From contig CAZQLM010000001.1 of assembly GCA_964594175.1 (NCBI GenBank), forward strand, positions 1 through 33,025: a stretch of DNA of 33,025 nucleotides, given 5' to 3'. This document shows positions 17,555-32,796 of the stretch, in pieces. Numbering within the stretch: position 1 is the stretch's first letter; every line of letters starts with the position of its first letter. Source of the stretch: an uncultured archaeon. Lineage in GTDB: Archaea > Aenigmatarchaeota > Aenigmatarchaeia > Aenigmatarchaeales > SZUA-1535. The notes below the pieces were generated by a model that was not told the origin of the DNA, searched no databases, and saw nothing but the letters and a program-made list of their open reading frames with translations. A program made the position numbers and the translations under genes.

Positions 17555-19176
17555 AAGTGGATAAAAACTACTTGCTAAACCTTTGCAAAATTCCGGAAGA
17601 AGAGCTAAGGGAAGTTCTTACCATGATAAAGGCTCCGATAGACGAGGAAGAGGGAAATATTTGGAAGCTTGAGATAACTCCTGATCGCCCTGATTTGCTT
17701 TCGCCAGAAGGTGTGGCGAGAGCTGTAAAAGGTTTTCTCGGCATAGAAAGCGAGATTCCGCAGTATAGCGTGGTGGAAACTGGTATTAGCGTGGAAGTTG
17801 AAAATGTTGAAGCCCGTCCATACATAGCTTGCGCAGCAGTGCTTGATGTAAAGCTTAACGATTATTTAATAAAAAGCTTAATGCAGCTTCAGGAAAAAAT
17901 TCACGAAACTTTAGGAAGAAGGAGAAAAAAGGTTGCTATAGGTTTACACGATTTGGACAAGGTTGCTCAGCCTTTCCGCTACACGCAGGCAGAAGGAAAA
18001 GAAATAGTTTTTGCTCCTTTGGGAGAACTTAAACCCATGAGCCTGGAGGAAATTTTGAAATATCACGAAAAAGGCAAAGAATACGCTTTCTGCTTGGAAG
18101 GTTATGAGAAATATCCAGTAATTCTTGACAAATACGGCGAGGTTTTAAGCTTTCCTCCCATTATTAATGGAGAGCTTACAAGAGTTACAGAAAATACAAA
18201 GAATCTTTTCATCGATGTCACAGGCACTGATAAGCAAGCGGTGGAAAAAGCCTTGAATATTTTGGTTTGTTCAATAGCAGAAGCTTGCGGAAAGATAGGA
18301 AAGGTAAAAGTAGGAAATGAAATCTATCCAAAACTTCTTCCAGAAAGCTTTGAGCTAAGAGTAGAAAGTGTTGATCACCTGCTCGGGCTCGGGTTAAAGG
18401 AGCATGAAATAGCAGAAATTTTGAAAAGAATGCGCTATTCTGTGCTCGAGCTAAAAGGAGGTGTGCTAAAGGTTTTAGTACCTCCTTATCGTGTAGACAT
18501 TCTTCACGAAGTTGATTTAATAGAAGATATCGCTATAGGATACGGAATAAACAACATGCGACCAGTTTTGCCAAAACTTCCTACTATGGGCAAAAAACAC
18601 GAAAAAGAAAAAATCTCTGAAAAGGTAAGGGAAATAATGATTGGTTTTGGAATGCAAGAAGTTTTAAGTTTTATTCTGACAAACAAAGAAAAGCAATTTA
18701 AAAGAATGCTCATTCCTGAGCAGGCATGCGTTGAGATAGCAAACCCTGTTAGCGCAGAATACACCATTTGCAGAACATGGCTTTTGCCTTGCTTGCTTGA
18801 ATTTCTTTCAGAGAATACGCACAATAAATACCCGCAAAAAATTTTCGAAATAGGTGATTGTGTTTTGCTTCATGAACAAGCAGAAACAGGAGCAAGAGAG
18901 GTAAGAAAACTAGCATGCGCTATTGCTCATGACAAAGCTAATTTAACCGAAATAAAAGCGATATTGCAAGCTCTTGCAAAAGAGCTGAACACGAGCTTGG
19001 TTATAAAGCCTTGGGAGCATGCAAGCTTCATACCTTCTCGCTGCGGAGAAATTTATCTCAACGGCAAAAGCTCTGGATTTTTTGGCGAACTTCACCCTGC
19101 TGTTCTAGAAAACTGGAAAATAGAAAAGCCTGTAGTTGCTTTTGAAATTGAATTTAGAGGTAAAAATGAAGATTAA
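17542..19176 (+). CDS. pheT: Phenylalanyl-tRNA synthetase beta subunit
   Basis: The N-terminus MPVIEVDKNYLLNL.. is typical of archaeal PheT, and B3/4 and B5-like regions are present. It overlaps the pheS stop by 13 nt. The longer track ORF start at 17515 lies inside pheS. Confidence 0.92.
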   Translation: MPVIEVDKNYLLNLCKIPEEELREVLTMIKAPIDEEEGNIWKLEITPDRPDLLSPEGVARAVKGFLGIESEIPQYSVVETGISVEVENVEARPYIACAAVLDVKLNDYLIKSLMQLQEKIHETLGRRRKKVAIGLHDLDKVAQPFRYTQAEGKEIVFAPLGELKPMSLEEILKYHEKGKEYAFCLEGYEKYPVILDKYGEVLSFPPIINGELTRVTENTKNLFIDVTGTDKQAVEKALNILVCSIAEACGKIGKVKVGNEIYPKLLPESFELRVESVDHLLGLGLKEHEIAEILKRMRYSVLELKGGVLKVLVPPYRVDILHEVDLIEDIAIGYGINNMRPVLPKLPTMGKKHEKEKISEKVREIMIGFGMQEVLSFILTNKEKQFKRMLIPEQACVEIANPVSAEYTICRTWLLPCLLEFLSENTHNKYPQKIFEIGDCVLLHEQAETGAREVRKLACAIAHDKANLTEIKAILQALAKELNTSLVIKPWEHASFIPSRCGEIYLNGKSSGFFGELHPAVLENWKIEKPVVAFEIEFRGKNED

Positions 19177-22438: not shown

Positions 22439-23473
22439 ATGCCTCTTGCAGAAGCAAGCTCTCTAGGAAAGTGTATTCTTTTCGGAGAGCATGCGGTGGT
22501 TTACGGCGAACCTGGAATAGCTGCTCCTTTAAGTTCTTGTAAAACAAAATCAAAAACTTATCCCTACGAAAAAGGTTTTCTCAAACTTGAAACGGATTTA
22601 GGAAAAGAGGAAGGAGAAGTTGGTGAATACAAGGAATACGGTAAATGGCTTAGCGAAAAATGGAAGTATTGCTGTAAACAAGATGATTTTTCAGAACTTT
22701 TTGAAGAAGTTAAAAAAGTACCAGAGAAAACTTGGCTGAGCGTTTTAGCTTATTATTTTGATTTTCCTGAAAATTTTTCGGCTTATGTTAAAGTAAAATC
22801 TTCTATTCCAATTGGAGCTGGGTTGGGAAGCTCTGCTGCTGTTAGCTCAGCTCTTGCCAAATGTTTTGCAAAGCTACTTAAAACTAGCGAAAAGCATAAA
22901 ATTTACCAGGCTTCTTTGCTTTGCGAAAAAATGTTTCACGGCACACCCTCTGGAATAGATAGCGCTATCGCTTGCTATGAAAAAGCGCTTGTTTTCAGAA
23001 AAGGAAAAGGTTTTGAGTTTTTTGAAATGAAACCTTTAGAAATTTTCATGATTTACACGCACAAACCAGAAAAAAGCACTGGCGAACTTGTGCAAGCGGT
23101 GAAAAATCTTGAAGAAGAATACCGAAATCCTAGAATTGAGAAAATCGGAGAGCTTGTAATAAAAGCGGAAAAAGCTTTGGAAGACGGAAATCTACGAGAG
23201 CTTACTAATTATGTAAAAGAAAACCAGTACTTGCTTGCTGAGCTTGGAGTAAGCAGCAAGGAAATTGATGAACTTGCACATATCATTAACAGTAAAAAAG
23301 ACATGGCTGTAAAGCTTACAGGGGCTGGTAGCGGTGGTATGGTTATAGGTTTTTACCTTCCTGGAAAAAAGCAAGAATTTGAAAGCATACTTGCAGAGCT
23401 AGGCTATGAAAAAATTCCTTCACCACAACTATCTCTTGAAAACAAAGTTTATTGGGAAGAAAGGTTAAAATAG
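22439..23473 (+). CDS. mvk: Mevalonate kinase (GHMP kinase family)
   Basis: It has KCILFGEHAVVYG at the N-terminus, the GHMP motif PIGAGLGSSAA, and KLTGAGSGG near the C-terminus. TATA-like tttaaattta lies ~20 nt upstream. Confidence 0.88.
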   Translation: MPLAEASSLGKCILFGEHAVVYGEPGIAAPLSSCKTKSKTYPYEKGFLKLETDLGKEEGEVGEYKEYGKWLSEKWKYCCKQDDFSELFEEVKKVPEKTWLSVLAYYFDFPENFSAYVKVKSSIPIGAGLGSSAAVSSALAKCFAKLLKTSEKHKIYQASLLCEKMFHGTPSGIDSAIACYEKALVFRKGKGFEFFEMKPLEIFMIYTHKPEKSTGELVQAVKNLEEEYRNPRIEKIGELVIKAEKALEDGNLRELTNYVKENQYLLAELGVSSKEIDELAHIINSKKDMAVKLTGAGSGGMVIGFYLPGKKQEFESILAELGYEKIPSPQLSLENKVYWEERLK

Positions 23474-23523
23474 CAGCTAAAAATTTTTATATTGAAATAA
23501 AATCTAAACTTTATTTGATTAGT

Positions 23524-26500
23524 ATGAGAAAAAAAGAGATTTTGCTTACATTGGGCATTTTTGCAATGCTTTTGCAAGCAGCTTTCTCAAGCTGGGTTTC
23601 ATCAACAACGGGCGAGTTCAAAGTTTCACCTTCTGTAGTTTACATAAACTGGACAGATACAAGCGGTTTAGGAGCTTATACTGCGAATATTTCGGTGAAC
23701 AACACGAAAGATTACAATATAACCATAGAAATATTGAATTATTCGGCTAATGCTGTTTTAGCTCCTGTATTTGATTTGGACGTGGAAAACATAAGCTACT
23801 GTTATTTCATTGGAGAAAGAAACGATACAAAAAACAAATATACATGTATTAACTTCTCTGTAATTCCAAGTAATGAAGTACTAGTAGAGAACAATAGTGT
23901 AAAAAATTTCACATTAAAACTGGAATACTTACCTACAGAATATCCTGGAAGGTATAGAAACTTTGTAAATTTACCCATAATAAATAAAACGAACTCTACA
24001 GAAAATGTGAGCATTATAGTATATGTTGATATCCCTGTAAACTTTACTCAAGAAAGGCATGTCAAAATAGGGAAATATTCTACTGCAGGGAATTATATGA
24101 CATACGAAATTCCAGCAAATAACGCAGGCAAGCAAGATGCTCATTTCTATTATTTCAATGCAAGCGAAATAGCTAATGCTTCTGCTATATTTGTTAACAT
24201 AAGTTCCTCTAAGCTTGCGATGTTTCTTTTCGACGAATACGAAAATTTTTTGGAAAATTCTGCTAATACAAGTACGGGAAAGCATGAACTTTTATATTCA
24301 CCAGAGGAGCTTCCGAAGGATAGATATCTCAAGCTTTACATTTATGGAAATGATACACAACCGATTTCTTATGAAGCTTTTATCTCGATTTTCGCAATAC
24401 AAGCTTTAAACGCGAGCGATTTATCGCAAAGTTTTGGCTATAATAAACAAATGCCCTTTGTAATAAATTTTTCGGCTGGTGAGAATAATTTTACTTCCGT
24501 ATTTGTTTTGAAGAATAAGGGAAATTATAATTATAGCAATGTTGCAGAGTCAAAAAGAGTTGAGCTAATTTACGAATTCACCTCTCAAACAGGAAATAAC
24601 ACTCATTACTTCATAGTTCCAAGTTCTACGCAAGATATTCATGCTGAGCTTATCTTCAACGACACAAATGCAAACTATTCTCTCTTTCTGAAAGATTATA
24701 ACGGAAATGTACTAAGAAGCGCTTATTATACAAAAGGCTATTATGAAGAAATTGTAAATAAAAGCAGAGTTGAATTAAGCTATCAAGCTTCCCTTTCACC
24801 AGGAAAATATAGTATAGAAGTGGTTAACATTTCTGGGAATGCTGAATATAATTTAACGATTTATCTTAATCTTTCTTCAAGCGATTTTGTTAGTACAAAT
24901 TATTCTTCTTATTCCTCAAAAGATTTCAGAGAATTTGGAATCGAGAACGATTCAAAAATAGTTAGCTTTAATTTCACCTTACCTTCTACTTCAATTCCAG
25001 GAATTTATAAAGTAACGCTAACCTACAGAGAAAACAATGGAAAAGGAGCAGGAATAAAAATTCCGATTTTCGTAAAAGCAGTTGGAACAAACTTTCTTGT
25101 AGATAAAAAATTACAAAATCAAATAACACTTACCGCTACACAAAACTTGGAAAGAAATGTTAAATTTAATTTAAGTTTTATCATCGAAAACTTTGGCAAT
25201 TATAATATAACTGATGTTTTTATAAACTTTACTAACTTAACTCTTTCTACCTCAAGCGGAGTATATTATGCAAATATAACAGCAATTTATATTAATGATA
25301 CAAAATATTCTCAAGCATTTACTATTCAAAATGATTCACAAATAAATGTAACGATAGAAATTCTTGTGAATAAAACAAAAGCTTCTCAAGAAGGAATTTA
25401 TCAAGGTTATGTTTTGCTCAATATGAGCAATTCTAAGTTCAAGGTTAAACCTTACGATTACCTTAACGTTACTATAAAGCTTAACATGACAAAATGGCTT
25501 ATAGTCAAATCCGCGAGCTTATCTCCCAGTAGTGTAAATGTTTCAGTCTCTGCAAAAAATGTTACTTTAACATTCAAAGTTTACTATGCAAATAACTCAG
25601 CCATAGTAGCAGGAGAAATAGGACTTAACAATATACTCAGCATAATATTAGTGCATAAGAATTTAACGACTAGAGTGAAGAATGTTACTTCCACAAAGAG
25701 TTTTGCAGAAGGAACTACTATTTGGTCTTCACCTGTCTACAAGCTAAATATCTCTATTCCAAGAAAAATGTGGGGCGGTTACTATGATGTCATATTCAAT
25801 TTTACAACAAAGGATACTAATAGATTAGTAGGAAAAGGAAAAACATTACTTGCTGTTCAGGATGAAGCGCTTGCAGTTGATGTGCTTTATCCATCTCAAA
25901 GTCTTTCTATGCAAAACGGGACTGAAAAATGGTTGAATATAAGCATAACAAATTACGGATTAGATAATATCGCCAATGCTCAGCTCAAAATTGAAAGCAA
26001 TTTAATACAAGAAGTAACATTCAGCTCAAAAACAGGCGATTGCAACGTTGATTCAGTTTCAAACAAAGTTATAACATTCGATATAAACGCACAAAAGAGT
26101 TGTAACATTTCAATGAAAATAAAAGCTTCCGGTTCTTCAGGATCTGGAACAGTTTATCTCAAAGGCGCTAGTGGTTTATGGATAAAAAATGATTCGTTTC
26201 AATTAACAGTTACAGCTCCTAGTTCAAGCTCTTCACAAGAAGAGGAAACAACACAAGAAACACAACAAACTACACAGCAACAGGAAGAAGAGGAAGAGGA
26301 AGAAGTATGGATAAGCGATTTCAAGTTTATTTCGTATCCTTCTCTGATTTCCATAGAACAAGGAAAAAGCAAAATCGTGAGCGTATCTGTCAAAAACACT
26401 GGTAATCTTACTCTGGTTAATCTAAGTTTAGTTGTGGAAAATATTGAAAGTTCCTGGGTTAAGATTTCTAATCCCGTATCTCTTTCAGCAGAAGAAACGC

Positions 26501-27135
26501 ATTCATTTACGGTAAACTTTACCATACCAAAAAACGCAAAACTCGGAAAAAGGGAAATAACTTTCAAGGTGTATTCCAAAAATTTATCTAAAAGTGTTAA
26601 GGCTACTCTTGAAATTCTTCCTTCAGAAGAATACAAAATGAATGTTGAGCAAAACCTTACAATAGCAAAAGAAATTTATGAAAACCTCACAGTTTTATAT
26701 AACGAATATGTAGAAAGGGGAATTGAAAACAAAACGATTAATTCTACGCTTCTTTCCATTCAATCCCTAATTGTTCAAGCTGAAAGTTTGATAAAAGCTA
26801 ACGACTATCAATCTGCAGCGAGCATAATATCCTCTGCATTAACTCTCTTGCAGAGGGCAAAAACCCAGATTCAGAGCTTGGAAGAGATTGCAAAAAAGAA
26901 AGAAAGAGAAAGCACGTTCATGACGCTTGGCATTATTCTTATAATTTTCGGTGTTTGCCTAATCGTATACTTATTACTTCCTCCACCGCACGGCTATGAG
27001 CCAGAAAGAGGTTTTCGTTACGTTCCACCACATCACAGAGGAAAGCCAAAATTGAAAAGATTGGTAGAGGAAATTAAACATAAATGTAAAATCATAAAGA
27101 AAAAAATAAAACAACTGAAAAAGAGCGAGGTTTAA
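23524..27135 (+). CDS. Large cell-surface (S-layer-like) glycoprotein candidate with a C-terminal membrane anchor
   Basis: 1203 aa from ATG 23524.
- Signal peptide: MRKKEILLTLGIFAMLLQAAFS
- Long beta-rich body with ~60 N-x-S/T sequons (manual count)
- Ser/Thr/Gln/Glu linker: SSSSSQEEETTQETQQTTQQQEEEEEEE
- CARDB/NEW3-like module: ..SWVKISNPVSLSAEETHSFTVNFTIPKNAKLGKREITFKV..
- Coiled segment
- TM helix: TFMTLGIILIIFGVCLIVYLLL
- Basic tail. Confidence 0.85.
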   Translation: MRKKEILLTLGIFAMLLQAAFSSWVSSTTGEFKVSPSVVYINWTDTSGLGAYTANISVNNTKDYNITIEILNYSANAVLAPVFDLDVENISYCYFIGERNDTKNKYTCINFSVIPSNEVLVENNSVKNFTLKLEYLPTEYPGRYRNFVNLPIINKTNSTENVSIIVYVDIPVNFTQERHVKIGKYSTAGNYMTYEIPANNAGKQDAHFYYFNASEIANASAIFVNISSSKLAMFLFDEYENFLENSANTSTGKHELLYSPEELPKDRYLKLYIYGNDTQPISYEAFISIFAIQALNASDLSQSFGYNKQMPFVINFSAGENNFTSVFVLKNKGNYNYSNVAESKRVELIYEFTSQTGNNTHYFIVPSSTQDIHAELIFNDTNANYSLFLKDYNGNVLRSAYYTKGYYEEIVNKSRVELSYQASLSPGKYSIEVVNISGNAEYNLTIYLNLSSSDFVSTNYSSYSSKDFREFGIENDSKIVSFNFTLPSTSIPGIYKVTLTYRENNGKGAGIKIPIFVKAVGTNFLVDKKLQNQITLTATQNLERNVKFNLSFIIENFGNYNITDVFINFTNLTLSTSSGVYYANITAIYINDTKYSQAFTIQNDSQINVTIEILVNKTKASQEGIYQGYVLLNMSNSKFKVKPYDYLNVTIKLNMTKWLIVKSASLSPSSVNVSVSAKNVTLTFKVYYANNSAIVAGEIGLNNILSIILVHKNLTTRVKNVTSTKSFAEGTTIWSSPVYKLNISIPRKMWGGYYDVIFNFTTKDTNRLVGKGKTLLAVQDEALAVDVLYPSQSLSMQNGTEKWLNISITNYGLDNIANAQLKIESNLIQEVTFSSKTGDCNVDSVSNKVITFDINAQKSCNISMKIKASGSSGSGTVYLKGASGLWIKNDSFQLTVTAPSSSSSQEEETTQETQQTTQQQEEEEEEEVWISDFKFISYPSLISIEQGKSKIVSVSVKNTGNLTLVNLSLVVENIESSWVKISNPVSLSAEETHSFTVNFTIPKNAKLGKREITFKVYSKNLSKSVKATLEILPSEEYKMNVEQNLTIAKEIYENLTVLYNEYVERGIENKTINSTLLSIQSLIVQAESLIKANDYQSAASIISSALTLLQRAKTQIQSLEEIAKKKERESTFMTLGIILIIFGVCLIVYLLLPPPHGYEPERGFRYVPPHHRGKPKLKRLVEEIKHKCKIIKKKIKQLKKSEV

Positions 27136-30278: not shown

Positions 30279-31694
30279 TCAAACTTTTTTCCTTACCTTT
30301 GGTCCATGAGGAGTATCTTCTACCTCGTATCCCATTGCTCTAATCTTTTCTCTTATAGCATCTGCCTCTTTATAGCGTTTTTCTTTGCGAAGCTTTTCTC
30401 TTTCTTCAAGTAATTTTTTAATTTTTTCGGGAATTCTAAAAATTAAAGCTTTTTTTAAGTTGAGCCCGAGCACCTTATCAAGATCGAGCATCGCTTCTAT
30501 TATTTCTCTGGCATTCTTTTTTGGAATTTTATTTTCATCAATAAGTTTGTTTACTGCGTGTACAAAATCAAAAAGTACAGCAAAAGCTTCTGGTGTGTTT
30601 AAATCATCTGCCAAAGCTTTTAGAAACTTTTCTTTCATTTTCTCAAGACTCTCTGATATGGTTTTATCATAGCCTTTTTTATTAATTTTTTTAAGTCTTT
30701 GCAAAAAGTTTATTAGCGATTCAAGATTTCTTTCTGCCTGCTTTAGAGCTTCAAAAGTGAAGTTGAGTTGCTTTCTATAATGCCCAGAAAGGAAAAGTAA
30801 CCTAATAGCAAGCGGGTTATAACCTTTGTTAAGTATATCTCTTAATGTGTAAAAATTTCCAAGAGATTTTGACATTTTTTTCCCATTTACAAGTATGTGC
30901 TCGCAATGCACCCAAAAGCGAGAAAATTGCTTTCCTGTATAAGCTTCGCTTTGTGCAATTTCATTTTCATGATGCGGAAATATTAAATCTACCCCACCAG
31001 AGTGTATATCAATTGTTTTTCCTAAATATTTCATTGCTATTACACTACATTCTATATGCCATCCAGGCCTACCTTTACCCCAAGGAGAAATCCAATAAAT
31101 TTTTCGCTTTATTTCTTCTGGTGTTGAAGCCTTCCATAAAGCGAAATCTGCAGGATTTTCTTTTCCGTATTCGTCAACATCAACTCTTGCTCCTGGTTTC
31201 AGCTTTGAAAGCTTTATTTTCGAAAGCTTCCCGTAATCTTTGAACTTTTTTATTGAGAAATACACACTTCCTTCACGAACGTAGGCAAAGCCTTTTCTTA
31301 CAAGTGCCTTTACCACTTTTATCATTTCAGGAATTTCACTTGTAGCTGGAACGAGCTTTGTTGGAGGTTTTATATTTAAAGCTTTCATATCTTTAAGGAA
31401 TTCTTTTGTGTAAAATTTCGTAAGTTTTTTCAGGCTCCATCCAAGTTCTTTAGAACGGTTTATTGTTTTATCGTCTATATCAGTAGTGTTCATTACATGC
31501 TTTACTTCATAACCGAAATATTCAAGCACGCGCTTAAGCAAGTCTTGCCTTACATAAGTTGCAAAATTTCCAATGTGGGCGTAATCGTAGACTGTTGGGC
31601 CGCATGTATAGTAAAGCACAGTTTTACCCTTTAGTGGTTTGAAAATTTCTTTTTTCCTCGTTAAGGTGTTGAAAAGCTTTACCTTTATTTTCAC
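30279..31694 (-). CDS. cysS: Cysteinyl-tRNA synthetase
   Basis: 471 aa. It has class I HIGN (YAHIGNF) and KMSKS motifs and a WHIECS zinc/cysteine-binding region. Its start overlaps the stop of the upstream ThiI-like gene by 4 nt. Confidence 0.95.
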   Translation of the reverse strand: MKIKVKLFNTLTRKKEIFKPLKGKTVLYYTCGPTVYDYAHIGNFATYVRQDLLKRVLEYFGYEVKHVMNTTDIDDKTINRSKELGWSLKKLTKFYTKEFLKDMKALNIKPPTKLVPATSEIPEMIKVVKALVRKGFAYVREGSVYFSIKKFKDYGKLSKIKLSKLKPGARVDVDEYGKENPADFALWKASTPEEIKRKIYWISPWGKGRPGWHIECSVIAMKYLGKTIDIHSGGVDLIFPHHENEIAQSEAYTGKQFSRFWVHCEHILVNGKKMSKSLGNFYTLRDILNKGYNPLAIRLLFLSGHYRKQLNFTFEALKQAERNLESLINFLQRLKKINKKGYDKTISESLEKMKEKFLKALADDLNTPEAFAVLFDFVHAVNKLIDENKIPKKNAREIIEAMLDLDKVLGLNLKKALIFRIPEKIKKLLEEREKLRKEKRYKEADAIREKIRAMGYEVEDTPHGPKVRKKV

Positions 31695-32356
31695 TTTATC
31701 ACCTCCTTGAACTCTTCAGGAGATTTTATAAAACAAGCTTCTTCGATGATTTTCGCTATTAATTTTTCTACCTCTATTTCTTTGAAAATTTTTTCGACTT
31801 TTTCATAGGAAGCCATTGTTACAGGGTAGCGAGGTACATATCTGCATGTTCCCACGTGCCTTTCTACTCCCAATCCAAACCTTCTTGCAAGCTTTACTAT
31901 TTCTTCTTTGTCAAAGCAGAGCAAAGGATGCAGCACAGCATGCCTTACTCCAAAATGCGTTGCTTGCATGTTGTAAATTGTTTGCGATGCTTTTTGTGCA
32001 AGAACTTCACCGGTAGCGATGGCTTTGCAGTTGAGCCTTTCGCAGAGTAAATCGCAAGCAAAGAGCATGCTCTTCCTGCAGAGCACACAAATGTATTTTC
32101 TTTTAACTCTGAGAGAAAGTTCTTTAAGCACGGTAGAAAAATTTACAATAACCATTTTTTTAATTTTAATCCTTTCCCAAATACTTTCAAGAATTTCCTG
32201 AAGAGTTTGGGTGTATTTCCTGGGAAAAACTTTTTCCAGAGAAAAATGTACAGGTGTTACTTTGTAAACTTTTGAAAGAAGTTTCATAGCCACTGGGCTA
32301 TCTATACCACCTGAAAACATGAAAAGAATTTTGGAGCCGCGGGGGAGATTTTCCAT
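31691..32356 (-). CDS. thiI: ThiI-like PP-loop ATPase (tRNA 4-thiouridine/thiamine sulfurtransferase core) lacking the N-terminal ferredoxin-like and THUMP domains
   Basis: It has the PP-loop FSGGIDSPVA, ..ATGEVLAQKASQT.., ..LHPLLCFDKEEIV.. and CRYVPRYPVT. Start ATG 32356 gives MENLPRGSKILFMFSGG. The track ORF extends to 32476 only by reading through the tRNA-Cys gene. Confidence 0.82.
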   Translation of the reverse strand: MENLPRGSKILFMFSGGIDSPVAMKLLSKVYKVTPVHFSLEKVFPRKYTQTLQEILESIWERIKIKKMVIVNFSTVLKELSLRVKRKYICVLCRKSMLFACDLLCERLNCKAIATGEVLAQKASQTIYNMQATHFGVRHAVLHPLLCFDKEEIVKLARRFGLGVERHVGTCRYVPRYPVTMASYEKVEKIFKEIEVEKLIAKIIEEACFIKSPEEFKEVIK

Positions 32357-32438
32357 TTCAAGAGAGTTGGACTCCCTTATATTTGAACTCCCGTCAACCG
32401 GTCTGCAGCCGGTCGCATAGCCCCTCTGCCACCGCGGC
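32332..32438 (-). tRNA. tRNA-Cys (anticodon GCA) with a ~33-nt intron in the T-loop, CCA encoded
   Basis: Minus-strand read: GCCGCGG-TG-GCAG-AGGGGCT-ATGC-G-ACCGG-CTGCAGA-CCGGT-TGAC-GGGAG-TTCAAAT-[33 nt]-CTCCC-CCGCGGC-T-CCA. It has a perfect acceptor stem and anticodon stem and a U73 discriminator. It is a GC-rich island in AT-rich DNA. Confidence 0.8.
32348..32380 (-). other. Putative non-canonical tRNA intron (T-loop, about position 59/60) of tRNA-Cys
   Basis: ATAAGGGAGTCCAACTCTCTTGAAATGGAAAAT must be removed to join T-loop TTCAAAT to the T-stem strand CTCCC. The boundaries can slide by 1-2 nt. There is an internal hairpin AAGGGAGT/ACTCTCTT. Confidence 0.6.
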
Positions 32439-32796
32439 ATGAGTAAAAAATTACTATCCAAAGCAAAGATATTCACCTTTCACAATACCACCTCACATAG
32501 GAATTAACAGGAATAATTTATAAATCTGATGGCAGTAGTTTTTATAAAACCTGAAATTAGAAAATCTGGCATGTGGAATGGATTGTAAATGAACCGTGGG
32601 TGTAAGCTTCAAAGTAATGCAGAGATAGAATTCGTTGTGGATGGTGAGTTTTTTTCGTGATTTCGAAATCGAGATTTTAAAGCTTTACAAAAGCGGAAAA
32701 GTTAGGATTGCTCAAAGAAATTTTTTACCGAGATTCGATTGGACCAACAATTCCCTTTTGAATAGCTGCGCGTTTTAAATGGTCCCGCGGGCCGGA

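Follow-up and report, generated by a model that had tools for sequence, protein, structure and literature searches.

Near one end of a 33,025-nucleotide (nt) stretch of contig DNA from an uncultured archaeon of the Aenigmatarchaeota (CAZQLM010000001.1, assembly GCA_964594175.1), the whole of which we refer to as the window, the minus strand carries a gene for tRNA-Cys with the anticodon GCA whose T-loop is interrupted by a 33-nt intron. The complete tRNA gene, exons as well as intron, is embedded in frame in an open reading frame (ORF) that continues into a ThiI-like protein, and the gene for cysteinyl-tRNA synthetase (CysRS) follows (Table 1). Together with the sequences upstream, these genes appear to constitute a conserved cysteine operon consisting of a promoter, a small ORF led by a Shine–Dalgarno (SD) element, tRNA-Cys, the ThiI-like gene, CysK in some lineages and CysRS.

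Table 1. Features of the tRNA-Cys locus, in window coordinates and in order of transcription
Feature	Position	Strand	Remarks
TATA-like box TTTATAAA of the putative operon promoter P1	32517..32524	minus	read from sequence; ends 33 nt before the small-ORF start
SD element GAGGTGG, 4 nt before the small-ORF start	32488..32494	minus	spacing as in the thermosome and CysRS genes of the window
Small ORF, GTG AAA GGT GAA TAT CTT TGC TTT GGA TAG (MKGEYLCFG*)	32454..32483	minus	single Cys codon
Candidate +1 frameshift site, GGTGA-ATAT-CTT-TGC	32463..32477	minus	SD-like element, 4-nt spacer, slippery CUU_U, Cys codon
Long ORF, 261 codons from GTG 32476, with the ThiI-like PP-loop domain at its end	31691..32476	minus	from the list of ORFs
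ATG in the ThiI frame, its G being nucleotide 1 of the tRNA (G1)	32438..32440	minus	present in 13/13 loci
tRNA-Cys(GCA) 5′ exon, nt 1–59	32382..32438	minus	translation in the ThiI frame (M)PRWQRGYATGCRPVDGSSN
33-nt T-loop intron, 59/60 register	32349..32381	minus	bulge–helix–bulge (BHB) scan and minimum-free-energy (MFE) fold; contains ATG 32356..32354
tRNA-Cys 3′ exon: U60, T-stem 3′ strand, acceptor 3′ strand, U73, CCA	32332..32348	minus	in-frame LPRGS(K)
CysRS gene	30279..31694	minus	TIGR00435 cysS, E=1.5e-155; overlaps the ThiI-like stop by 4 nt

Read on the minus strand, positions 32438..32332 resolve into GCCGCGG-TG-GCAG-AGGGGCT-ATGC-G-ACCGG-CTGCAGA-CCGGT-TGAC-GGGAG-TTCAAAT-[33 nt]-CTCCC-CCGCGGC-T-CCA, exactly the segmentation proposed in the original prediction, which had been made from the letters of the window. 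As it stands, the gene is invisible to standard searches: ARAGORN calls no tRNA in the unspliced segment, its sole call in the window being a tRNA-Phe, and Rfam reports nothing at the locus, either at the gathering threshold or, for 32200..32600, at E<=10, where partial tRNA matches were absent too. With the 33 nt deleted, ARAGORN calls a 74-nt tRNA-Cys(GCA), in agreement with the identity originally assigned; its acceptor stem has 7 bp and its anticodon stem and T-stem 5 bp each, and it ends in U73 and an encoded CCA. The anticodon, U73 and CCA are legible directly in the DNA, and the T-loop is intact. The same call was obtained for all 13 spliced sequences (the window and 12 further loci), and this recurrence of the same exons takes the gene well beyond chance. 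The anticodon-loop nucleotides U33-G34-C35 (32403..32405, minus strand) form the codon UGC when read in the ThiI frame, and the loop thus itself encodes cysteine, probably by coincidence.

The pattern of substitution bears on whether the tRNA might be a decayed relic that persists only as coding or leader sequence, with a working tRNA-Cys encoded elsewhere. Such decay would account for a locus that neither ARAGORN nor Rfam sees as it stands. In an alignment that includes outgroup tRNA-Cys genes, however, cloverleaf positions pair in 94% of cases, compared with around 50% when the partners are slid; the few stem changes are compensatory, with covariation at 27:43, 3:70 and 5:68 (27:43 occurs as A-U, U-A and G-C). 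The exons are near-invariant although the adjacent ThiI-like proteins share only 50–78% identity, the anticodon, U73 and T-loop have been preserved, and BHB-like splice sites persist, also in two 12-nt mini-introns that are independent but share one design. We regard a relic as highly improbable, and interpret 32438..32332 as in all likelihood a functional, conserved, intron-containing tRNA-Cys(GCA) gene of a thermophilic DPANN archaeon.

The relatives of the locus were found through its protein. The query was the ThiI-like sequence from the intronic methionine onwards, and the 5′ exon was not part of it. The search yielded nine clusters with 50–78% identity to the ThiI-like protein, all of them called with an N terminus of the form MPRWQRGYA[TSA]GCRP..GSSN, followed by a variable insert and LPRGSK; more cluster members look alike. 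This N terminus is the tRNA gene in translation, from the 5′ exon through the intron to the 3′ exon. DNA was examined for all nine clusters, four more loci came from DNA-pattern scans, and locus L126 is the contig encoding P0011, the only match in that identity range called without the MPRWQRG.. N terminus. That contig starts inside the intron and covers only its last 35 nt. Relatives in which the tRNA was out of frame would surface as shorter calls, and none exists apart from the contig-cut P0011. Every relative locus has near-identical tRNA-Cys exons with an insert at the same T-loop position, and the order tRNA-Cys, ThiI-like, CysRS is kept in the window and most relatives. Two relatives are labelled Candidatus Aenigmatarchaeota and Nanoarchaeota, which places the lineage in DPANN. 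Of the 108 stretches that a scan of genome contigs with 19-mers from the exons picked out, almost all were matches by chance in bacteria rich in G+C, and L038 and L105 alone were relevant; the Pyrobaculum matches are coding sequence and the Halorientalis match is an unrelated tRNA.

Comparison of these loci reveals a constraint that a tRNA intron would not ordinarily be expected to carry. The T-loop introns are 33, 57, 51, 12, 24, 27, 90, 57, 57 and 57 nt long, all multiples of three, as is a 12-nt intron in the D-loop of one relative. Across 10 non-redundant loci they contain no stop codon in the frame shared by the 5′ exon and the ThiI-like gene, versus 21 and 7 in the other two frames. The spacer between the small ORF and the tRNA behaves in the same way, with 0 stops in the ThiI frame (frame 0) against 8 and 20 in the others and its phase with the small ORF kept. 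Seven distinct T-loop intron lengths and five distinct spacer lengths imply at least about 10 insertion or deletion events, all of them frame-preserving, and the continuity of the ORF through the tRNA thus appears to have been maintained by selection across many such events. The original claim that the ThiI-like reading frame overlaps the intron and 3′ exon is therefore borne out, and extends to the whole tRNA gene.

A sister tRNA-Cys gene serves as a control for this constraint. In L120 (9..142), the T-loop of a tRNA-Cys with the acceptor strand GCGGAGG is interrupted at the equivalent site by an intron of 60 nt; there, a perfect T-stem, an AAU bulge and a perfect 4-bp helix make a better BHB than that of the window. 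No ThiI-like or other same-strand gene lies downstream, and the intron has two frame-0 stops. The gene downstream of the L120 tRNA lies on the opposite strand and looks GatB-like by eye.

The intron itself has a BHB-like splice-site architecture. The internal hairpin claimed in the original prediction is present in the MFE fold (8–9 bp), which also displays the T-stem and the 3′ AAU bulge. The junction, said to slide by 1–2 nt, in fact slides by 4 nt, as cuts from 56/57 to 60/61 all yield an identical product. The statement that no strict 3-4-3 BHB could be folded holds in so far as the central helix carries one mismatch, and falls short in that a near-canonical BHB does exist at 59/60: its outer helix is the 5-bp T-stem, both 3-nt bulges are AAU, the inner helix has 2 bp, and the central helix UUCA/GGAA comprises U54-A, U55-A and C56-G together with one mismatch, A57.G. 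This pattern recurs in L003 and L009. A strict BHB was also looked for in relatives whose introns end in GUGAAU and was not obtained there; in the consensus fold, UUCR pairs with UGAA, leaving a 1-nt bulge.

Homologous introns of 12–90 nt occupy the same T-loop site in the relatives. The additional D-loop intron, TCATCGACCTAA, lies in the tRNA-Cys of L008 (343..485); it is in frame and stop-free, and is built like the 12-nt T-loop intron of L003, with a 3-bp helix and a purine–purine mismatch closing a 5-nt loop. In the 5′ part of several introns (L001, L006–L009 and the window), a conserved hairpin AUAAGGG...CCCUUAU directly follows the AAU bulge, with compensatory changes at two base pairs, and a conserved CAACCCUUCC block comes next. 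We rejected the notion that the insert is an integration-site duplication, given its identical T-loop position in all lineages and its splice-site architecture. No gene for the splicing endonuclease EndA lies within the 33-kb window; in DPANN archaea, L3-loop EndAs have been linked to disrupted tRNA genes (PMC5829648).

Where translation begins is central to the meaning of the overlap. The original prediction took ATG 32356, inside the intron, to be the only start that spares the strand preceding the PP-loop, and thus saw the intron as the supplier of the start codon. The first point does not hold, as the frame is open up to ATG 32440..32438 (hereafter the G1-ATG) and GTG 32476, and the second does not generalize: no locus other than the window has the intronic ATG, an intronic start is missing altogether from L003 and L038, and the last 35 nt of the L126 intron contain none. 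Translation could nevertheless begin in the intron, at ATG 32356 or at GTG in relatives, with the 5′ exon untranslated and the upstream open frame coincidental. ATG 32356, which would yield MENLPRGS.., is the nearest canonical start upstream of strand β1 of the protein, and AlphaFold predicts order from around residue 41 of the long ORF, which is this methionine. Seven relatives have GTG one codon downstream of the position of the window's ATG, as GTG-AAT or GTG-AGT right before the 3′ exon, and L009 and L123 have an in-frame GTG five codons upstream of that exon. On the other hand, an intronic start would leave the phase-locked, stop-free spacer unexplained, no SD element precedes the intronic start codons in the window or the relatives, and the conserved GUGAAU can equally be read as a splice-site helix in which UGAA pairs with UUCR. 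Moreover, a start inside the intron would leave intron length unconstrained; that all eight lengths are multiples of three and stop-free in the 5′-exon frame points to translation entering upstream of the intron. Initiation within the intron as the source of the overlap is, in our assessment, unlikely.

A start downstream of the tRNA is harder still to reconcile with the protein. The Pfam match to ThiI (PF02568, E=2e-38) begins at residue K49 of the 261-codon ORF, and position 2 of NCBIfam PRK08349 aligns with residue 49. In the AlphaFold model, the predicted local distance difference test score (pLDDT) is below 50 for residues 1–38 and above 88 from residue 41, and strand β1 (KILFM) comprises residues 49–53, so that the folded domain is predicted to start at around residue 41–49. 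If there were no true overlap, the ThiI-like protein would start at ATG 32320 (MFSGGIDS..), and the long ORF would be an artefact of gene calling. This ATG lies 12 nt beyond the CCA, ORF calls routinely run on across tRNAs that go undetected, and G+C-rich exons are naturally poor in stops. However, a start there would remove strand β1 ahead of the SGGxDS loop, which both profile matches include, outgroup homologues all begin 2–5 residues before β1, and the codon is TTG in L038; stop-free, A+T-rich introns and spacers in multiples of three would also remain unaccounted for. We therefore consider a start at ATG 32320 very unlikely.

Taken together, these observations lead us to favour, with a probability of roughly 0.65, a reading in which translation runs across the tRNA gene, intron included, and processing and translation are alternative fates of each transcript. 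Ribosomes would enter upstream of the tRNA, at the G1-ATG or through a +1 shift at CUU-UGC in the small ORF, and the transcript would be either cut and spliced to give tRNA-Cys or translated into the ThiI-like protein. As tRNA processing strips any start codon from the downstream message, the two fates would be exclusive on one RNA; the mutual exclusivity proposed in the original prediction is supported, with the either/or fate itself deduced from the arrangement of the sequence.

Several points weigh against this reading. The G1-ATG has no SD element, an AT also precedes the sister tRNA of L120, where no ORF follows, and conservation of the AT may reflect tRNA transcription or processing instead of translation. 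Most relatives could start translation in the intron, whose 3′ end carries a GTG in frame. The tRNA-encoded extension of the protein has a sequence dictated by the tRNA, is predicted to be disordered and has no evident function in the protein, and a stable tRNA fold would impede the passage of ribosomes. Introns ending in GUGAAU allow no more than a relaxed BHB, for which registers 58/59 and 59/60 are both possible. The product of the per-locus shuffle probabilities for stop-free introns, 7e-5, overstates the significance, because the loci share ancestry and the statistics ignore phylogenetic dependence. Finally, all relatives are metagenomic, and the evidence throughout is comparative sequence analysis of metagenomic contigs.

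If ribosomes do read through the tRNA, the peptide that they would add to the ThiI-like protein seems to be only a tolerated, disordered appendage, as judged from the AlphaFold model. A folded function for it was considered and dropped in view of the low pLDDT of residues 1–38. The tRNA-encoded stretch in the ThiI frame begins PRWQRGYATGCR.., and PRWQRGYATGCRPVDGSSNIR is the peptide whose presence would mark translation through the tRNA.

Upstream of the tRNA, the leader has features of its own that are shared among the loci. Among the 12 other complete loci, only L005 lacks the small ORF; the remaining 11, like the window, have it behind a promoter-like BRE/TATA, with products such as MKGEYFCTK*, MKGEYLC*, MNGERLCPGK*, MGGHLCLE* and MIGEGVCC... 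The small ORF is 7–10 codons long, contains one Cys codon in the window and two in L003 and L038, and stops 0–3 codons past the Cys codon in 9 of 11 loci. Its start is the only one with an SD element at the spacing usual for the genome; GGTG(A/G) is found at comparable spacing in most relatives, and the genome otherwise uses GGAGGTG or leaderless starts. In the relatives, a TTTAAATA or TTTATAAA box ends 20–33 nt before the first in-frame start codon of the small ORF, and the TTTATAAA box of the window probably acts as a promoter element. The gap from the TATA box to the ATG is 22–24 nt in lineages whose small-ORF ATG lacks an SD element, which suggests that there the small ORF starts leaderless. 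A conserved SD element or leaderless start, an invariant Cys codon and a cysteine-themed operon are the features of a leader peptide. No terminator-like sites were found in 32250..32700, and with them the terminator and antiterminator of an attenuator are missing from this region. An oligo-T attenuator or intrinsic terminator was rejected, as the T6 run of the window is not conserved, and a pairing switch between leader and acceptor strand (32438..32495, minus strand) was rejected because the pairing is not conserved in relatives. In the window, the MFE and centroid folds of the leader contain a hairpin in which the SD element and small-ORF start pair with the AUG, the 5′ acceptor strand and the U6 run.

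The small ORF and the tRNA are phase-locked. The +1 frame of the small ORF is the ThiI frame, and it reaches the ThiI-like domain in all loci with its phase conserved: the distance from the Cys codon to G1 is 9, 27, 39, 48 or 51 nt, always a multiple of three. At the Cys codon lies a motif of invariant composition and spacing, NUU UGY in 11 of 11 loci with GGUGA or GGUGG exactly 4 nt upstream. The window and five lineages have CUU U as the slippery codon; L002 and L006 have UUU U instead, and in L003 and L038 it is GUU U, which is weaker. GGTGA is part of the SD sequence of the genome, but here these nucleotides double as the Gly-Glu codons of the small ORF and include the frame-0 GTG 32476.

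The routes by which ribosomes might enter the ThiI frame can be ranked, on the condition that translation through the tRNA is real. The leading candidate, although it falls short of even odds, is the G1-ATG, used on leaderless or short-leader transcripts or by re-initiation. L005 lacks the small ORF, and the centre of a TATA box there lies about 26.5 nt before the A of the G1-ATG, an arrangement that fits a leaderless mRNA doubling as a pre-tRNA with a 2-nt leader, and in four lineages with a 60-nt spacer a second TTTAAATA box lies about 32 nt before G1. Close behind or level with it comes a +1 shift of frame at CUU-UGC in the small ORF, the one route that accounts for the small ORF and the tRNA being phase-locked. 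Entry in frame 0 at GTG 32476, the start chosen by some gene callers, seems improbable: the SD element is 12 nt away, and the codon is internal and without an SD element in lineages with an apparently leaderless small ORF. The fourth route, an additional start in the intron, would make the intronic ATG at most a secondary start.

The motif at the Cys codon raises the further, tentative possibility, which we think has the odds clearly against it, that the small ORF senses charged tRNA-Cys by programmed +1 ribosomal frameshifting. In such a scheme, ribosomes would load at the small ORF, through the SD element at its usual spacing or at a position compatible with leaderless initiation. When Cys-tRNA-Cys is scarce, peptidyl-tRNA-Leu would slip to UUU, aided by pairing of GGUGA with the anti-SD sequence 4 nt upstream, and the slipped ribosome would read the +1 frame through tRNA-Cys and its intron into the ThiI-like gene, its passage keeping the RNA unfolded and uncut. 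When Cys-tRNA-Cys is plentiful, translation would terminate 0–3 codons further on, and the pre-tRNA would fold and be excised and spliced, severing the mRNA. The predicted trans-frame junction peptide is MKGEYL-ALDSNF...

Downstream of the tRNA, the protein encoded by the long ORF has an invariant SGGIDS motif (SGGxDS), as in PP-loop ATP pyrophosphatases. Its match to TIGR00342 covers positions 173–369 only and reaches 137 bits, far below the cut-off of 264.5, and its nearest matches in the PDB, 2c5s and 4kr6, correspond to the PP-loop domain of ThiI only, aligning from residue 173–187 on. Neither the profile nor the PDB matches revealed the N-terminal ferredoxin-like and THUMP domains. On these grounds it is best described as a stand-alone ThiI-like protein that resembles PRK08349, and not as a ThiI equivalog. 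The GTG start of CysRS has its own near-perfect extended SD element, AAGGAGGTGAT (31694..31712, minus strand), which lies within the last codons of the ThiI-like gene. In L008 (1121..2546) and L126 (689..2929), a CysK/M gene scoring above the TIGR01136 cut-off is inserted between the ThiI-like and CysRS genes.

Elsewhere in the window, the gene content is archaeal (thermosome, FtsZ and archaeal phenylalanyl-tRNA synthetase (PheRS)). The second tRNA gene, an intron-less tRNA-Phe (15414..15490, minus strand), is likewise near the genes of its cognate synthetase: it is divergent from, and about 0.8 kb away from, those for PheRS alpha and beta (16295..19176, plus strand). A CTTAAAAAT box centred about 29 nt before G1 of tRNA-Phe suggests a very short tRNA leader, and no small ORF analogous to MKGEYLCFG* was obvious by eye upstream of PheRS. 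A 1227-codon ORF at 23452..27135 (plus strand) has no Pfam match at E<=1e-5.

Introns of the kind described here have precedents. In ARMAN-2 (Candidatus Micrarchaeum acidiphilum), pre-tRNA-Cys contains a T-loop intron with a relaxed BHB that is cleaved in vitro by the ε2 splicing endonuclease (PMC3488258). The window shares with ARMAN-2 the DPANN affiliation, the tRNA-Cys, the non-canonical T-loop intron and the relaxed BHB; no coding overlap is described there, whereas here intron and exons lie in frame within an ORF and the intron length is a multiple of three. Non-canonical and multiple tRNA introns, including those with hBH and HBh′ motifs, occur in Thermoproteales and Nanoarchaeota (PMC3488258, PMC5829648, PMC4033280) and are common where endonuclease specificity is broad (PMC5829648). 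The introns of our loci resemble these in their D-loop and T-loop sites, their shortness and their need for an endonuclease of broad specificity, with two introns in L008, and differ from them in being constrained, as no coding constraint is known for the Thermoproteales and Nanoarchaeota introns. A BHB intron in the cbf5 pre-mRNA of Crenarchaeota was reportedly described by Yokobori et al. in 2009. Both cases place an archaeal BHB-type intron within a translated reading frame, but the cbf5 intron must leave to restore the frame, whereas at our locus it is the unspliced RNA that holds the open frame and the exons form a tRNA. Other RNAs combine a tRNA-like part with a translated part, such as transfer-messenger RNA (tmRNA) and tRNA–mRNA co-transcripts of the thrU-tufB type; in those, the tRNA and coding parts are separate segments, in contrast to the same nucleotides serving both here. 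We found no description in the literature of a tRNA gene and its intron held in frame within a coding sequence. Thus, the T-loop intron of a DPANN tRNA-Cys is of an already known kind, and it is the coding constraint for which we found no precedent.

The proposed frameshift has its closest counterpart in the Escherichia coli prfB gene for release factor 2 (RF2), in which a programmed +1 frameshift uses an SD element, a 3-nt spacing and CUU UGA (PMC10798248). The two have in common an SD-like element, putative here, a few nucleotides upstream of CUU_U, a long functional +1 ORF, and a slowly decoded codon in the ribosomal A site together with a decoding factor from the same operon, which gives an autoregulatory logic. 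The present motif differs in that the A-site codon is a sense codon for cysteine instead of a stop, the spacing is 4 nt rather than 3 nt, the organism is an archaeon, and the case is known from sequence alone. The only frameshift established in Archaea is a single −1 case, and cellular +1 frameshifting has yet to be demonstrated there; attenuation is likewise essentially undemonstrated (PMC8211752). Leader peptides with Cys codons have been predicted upstream of actinobacterial cys operons (PMC1262725). These too are short upstream ORFs with a cognate regulatory codon ahead of cysteine genes, but they contain runs of Cys codons, unlike the single codon here (two in L003 and L038), and at our locus a tRNA gene stands between the leader and the genes. 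We found no literature description of a Cys-codon leader ahead of an archaeal operon of a tRNA and an aminoacyl-tRNA synthetase.

These findings bear on how such genomes are read and on how the genes may be regulated. A tRNA-Cys gene that standard tRNA finders do not see helps to explain the ‘missing’ tRNA-Cys of DPANN genomes, and the deposited proteins of the relatives are misannotated, with calls that, in all ten related protein clusters (50% identity or more) of the collection searched, run through the tRNA and start with a spurious-looking MPRWQRG... In the literature that we searched, this is the first case seen of a tRNA intron that appears to be selected as coding sequence, with a length that is a multiple of three and no stops. 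An operon of a tRNA, its synthetase and in some lineages CysK, preceded by a mini-ORF with one Cys codon and an RF2-like slip motif, is a candidate for the sensing of aminoacyl-tRNA by translation in Archaea. If the frameshifting scheme is true, it would represent an RF2-like autoregulatory loop acting on a sense codon and the first cellular +1 frameshift in Archaea, and the fate of a transcript, as tRNA or as mRNA, would be set by the charging level of that same tRNA.

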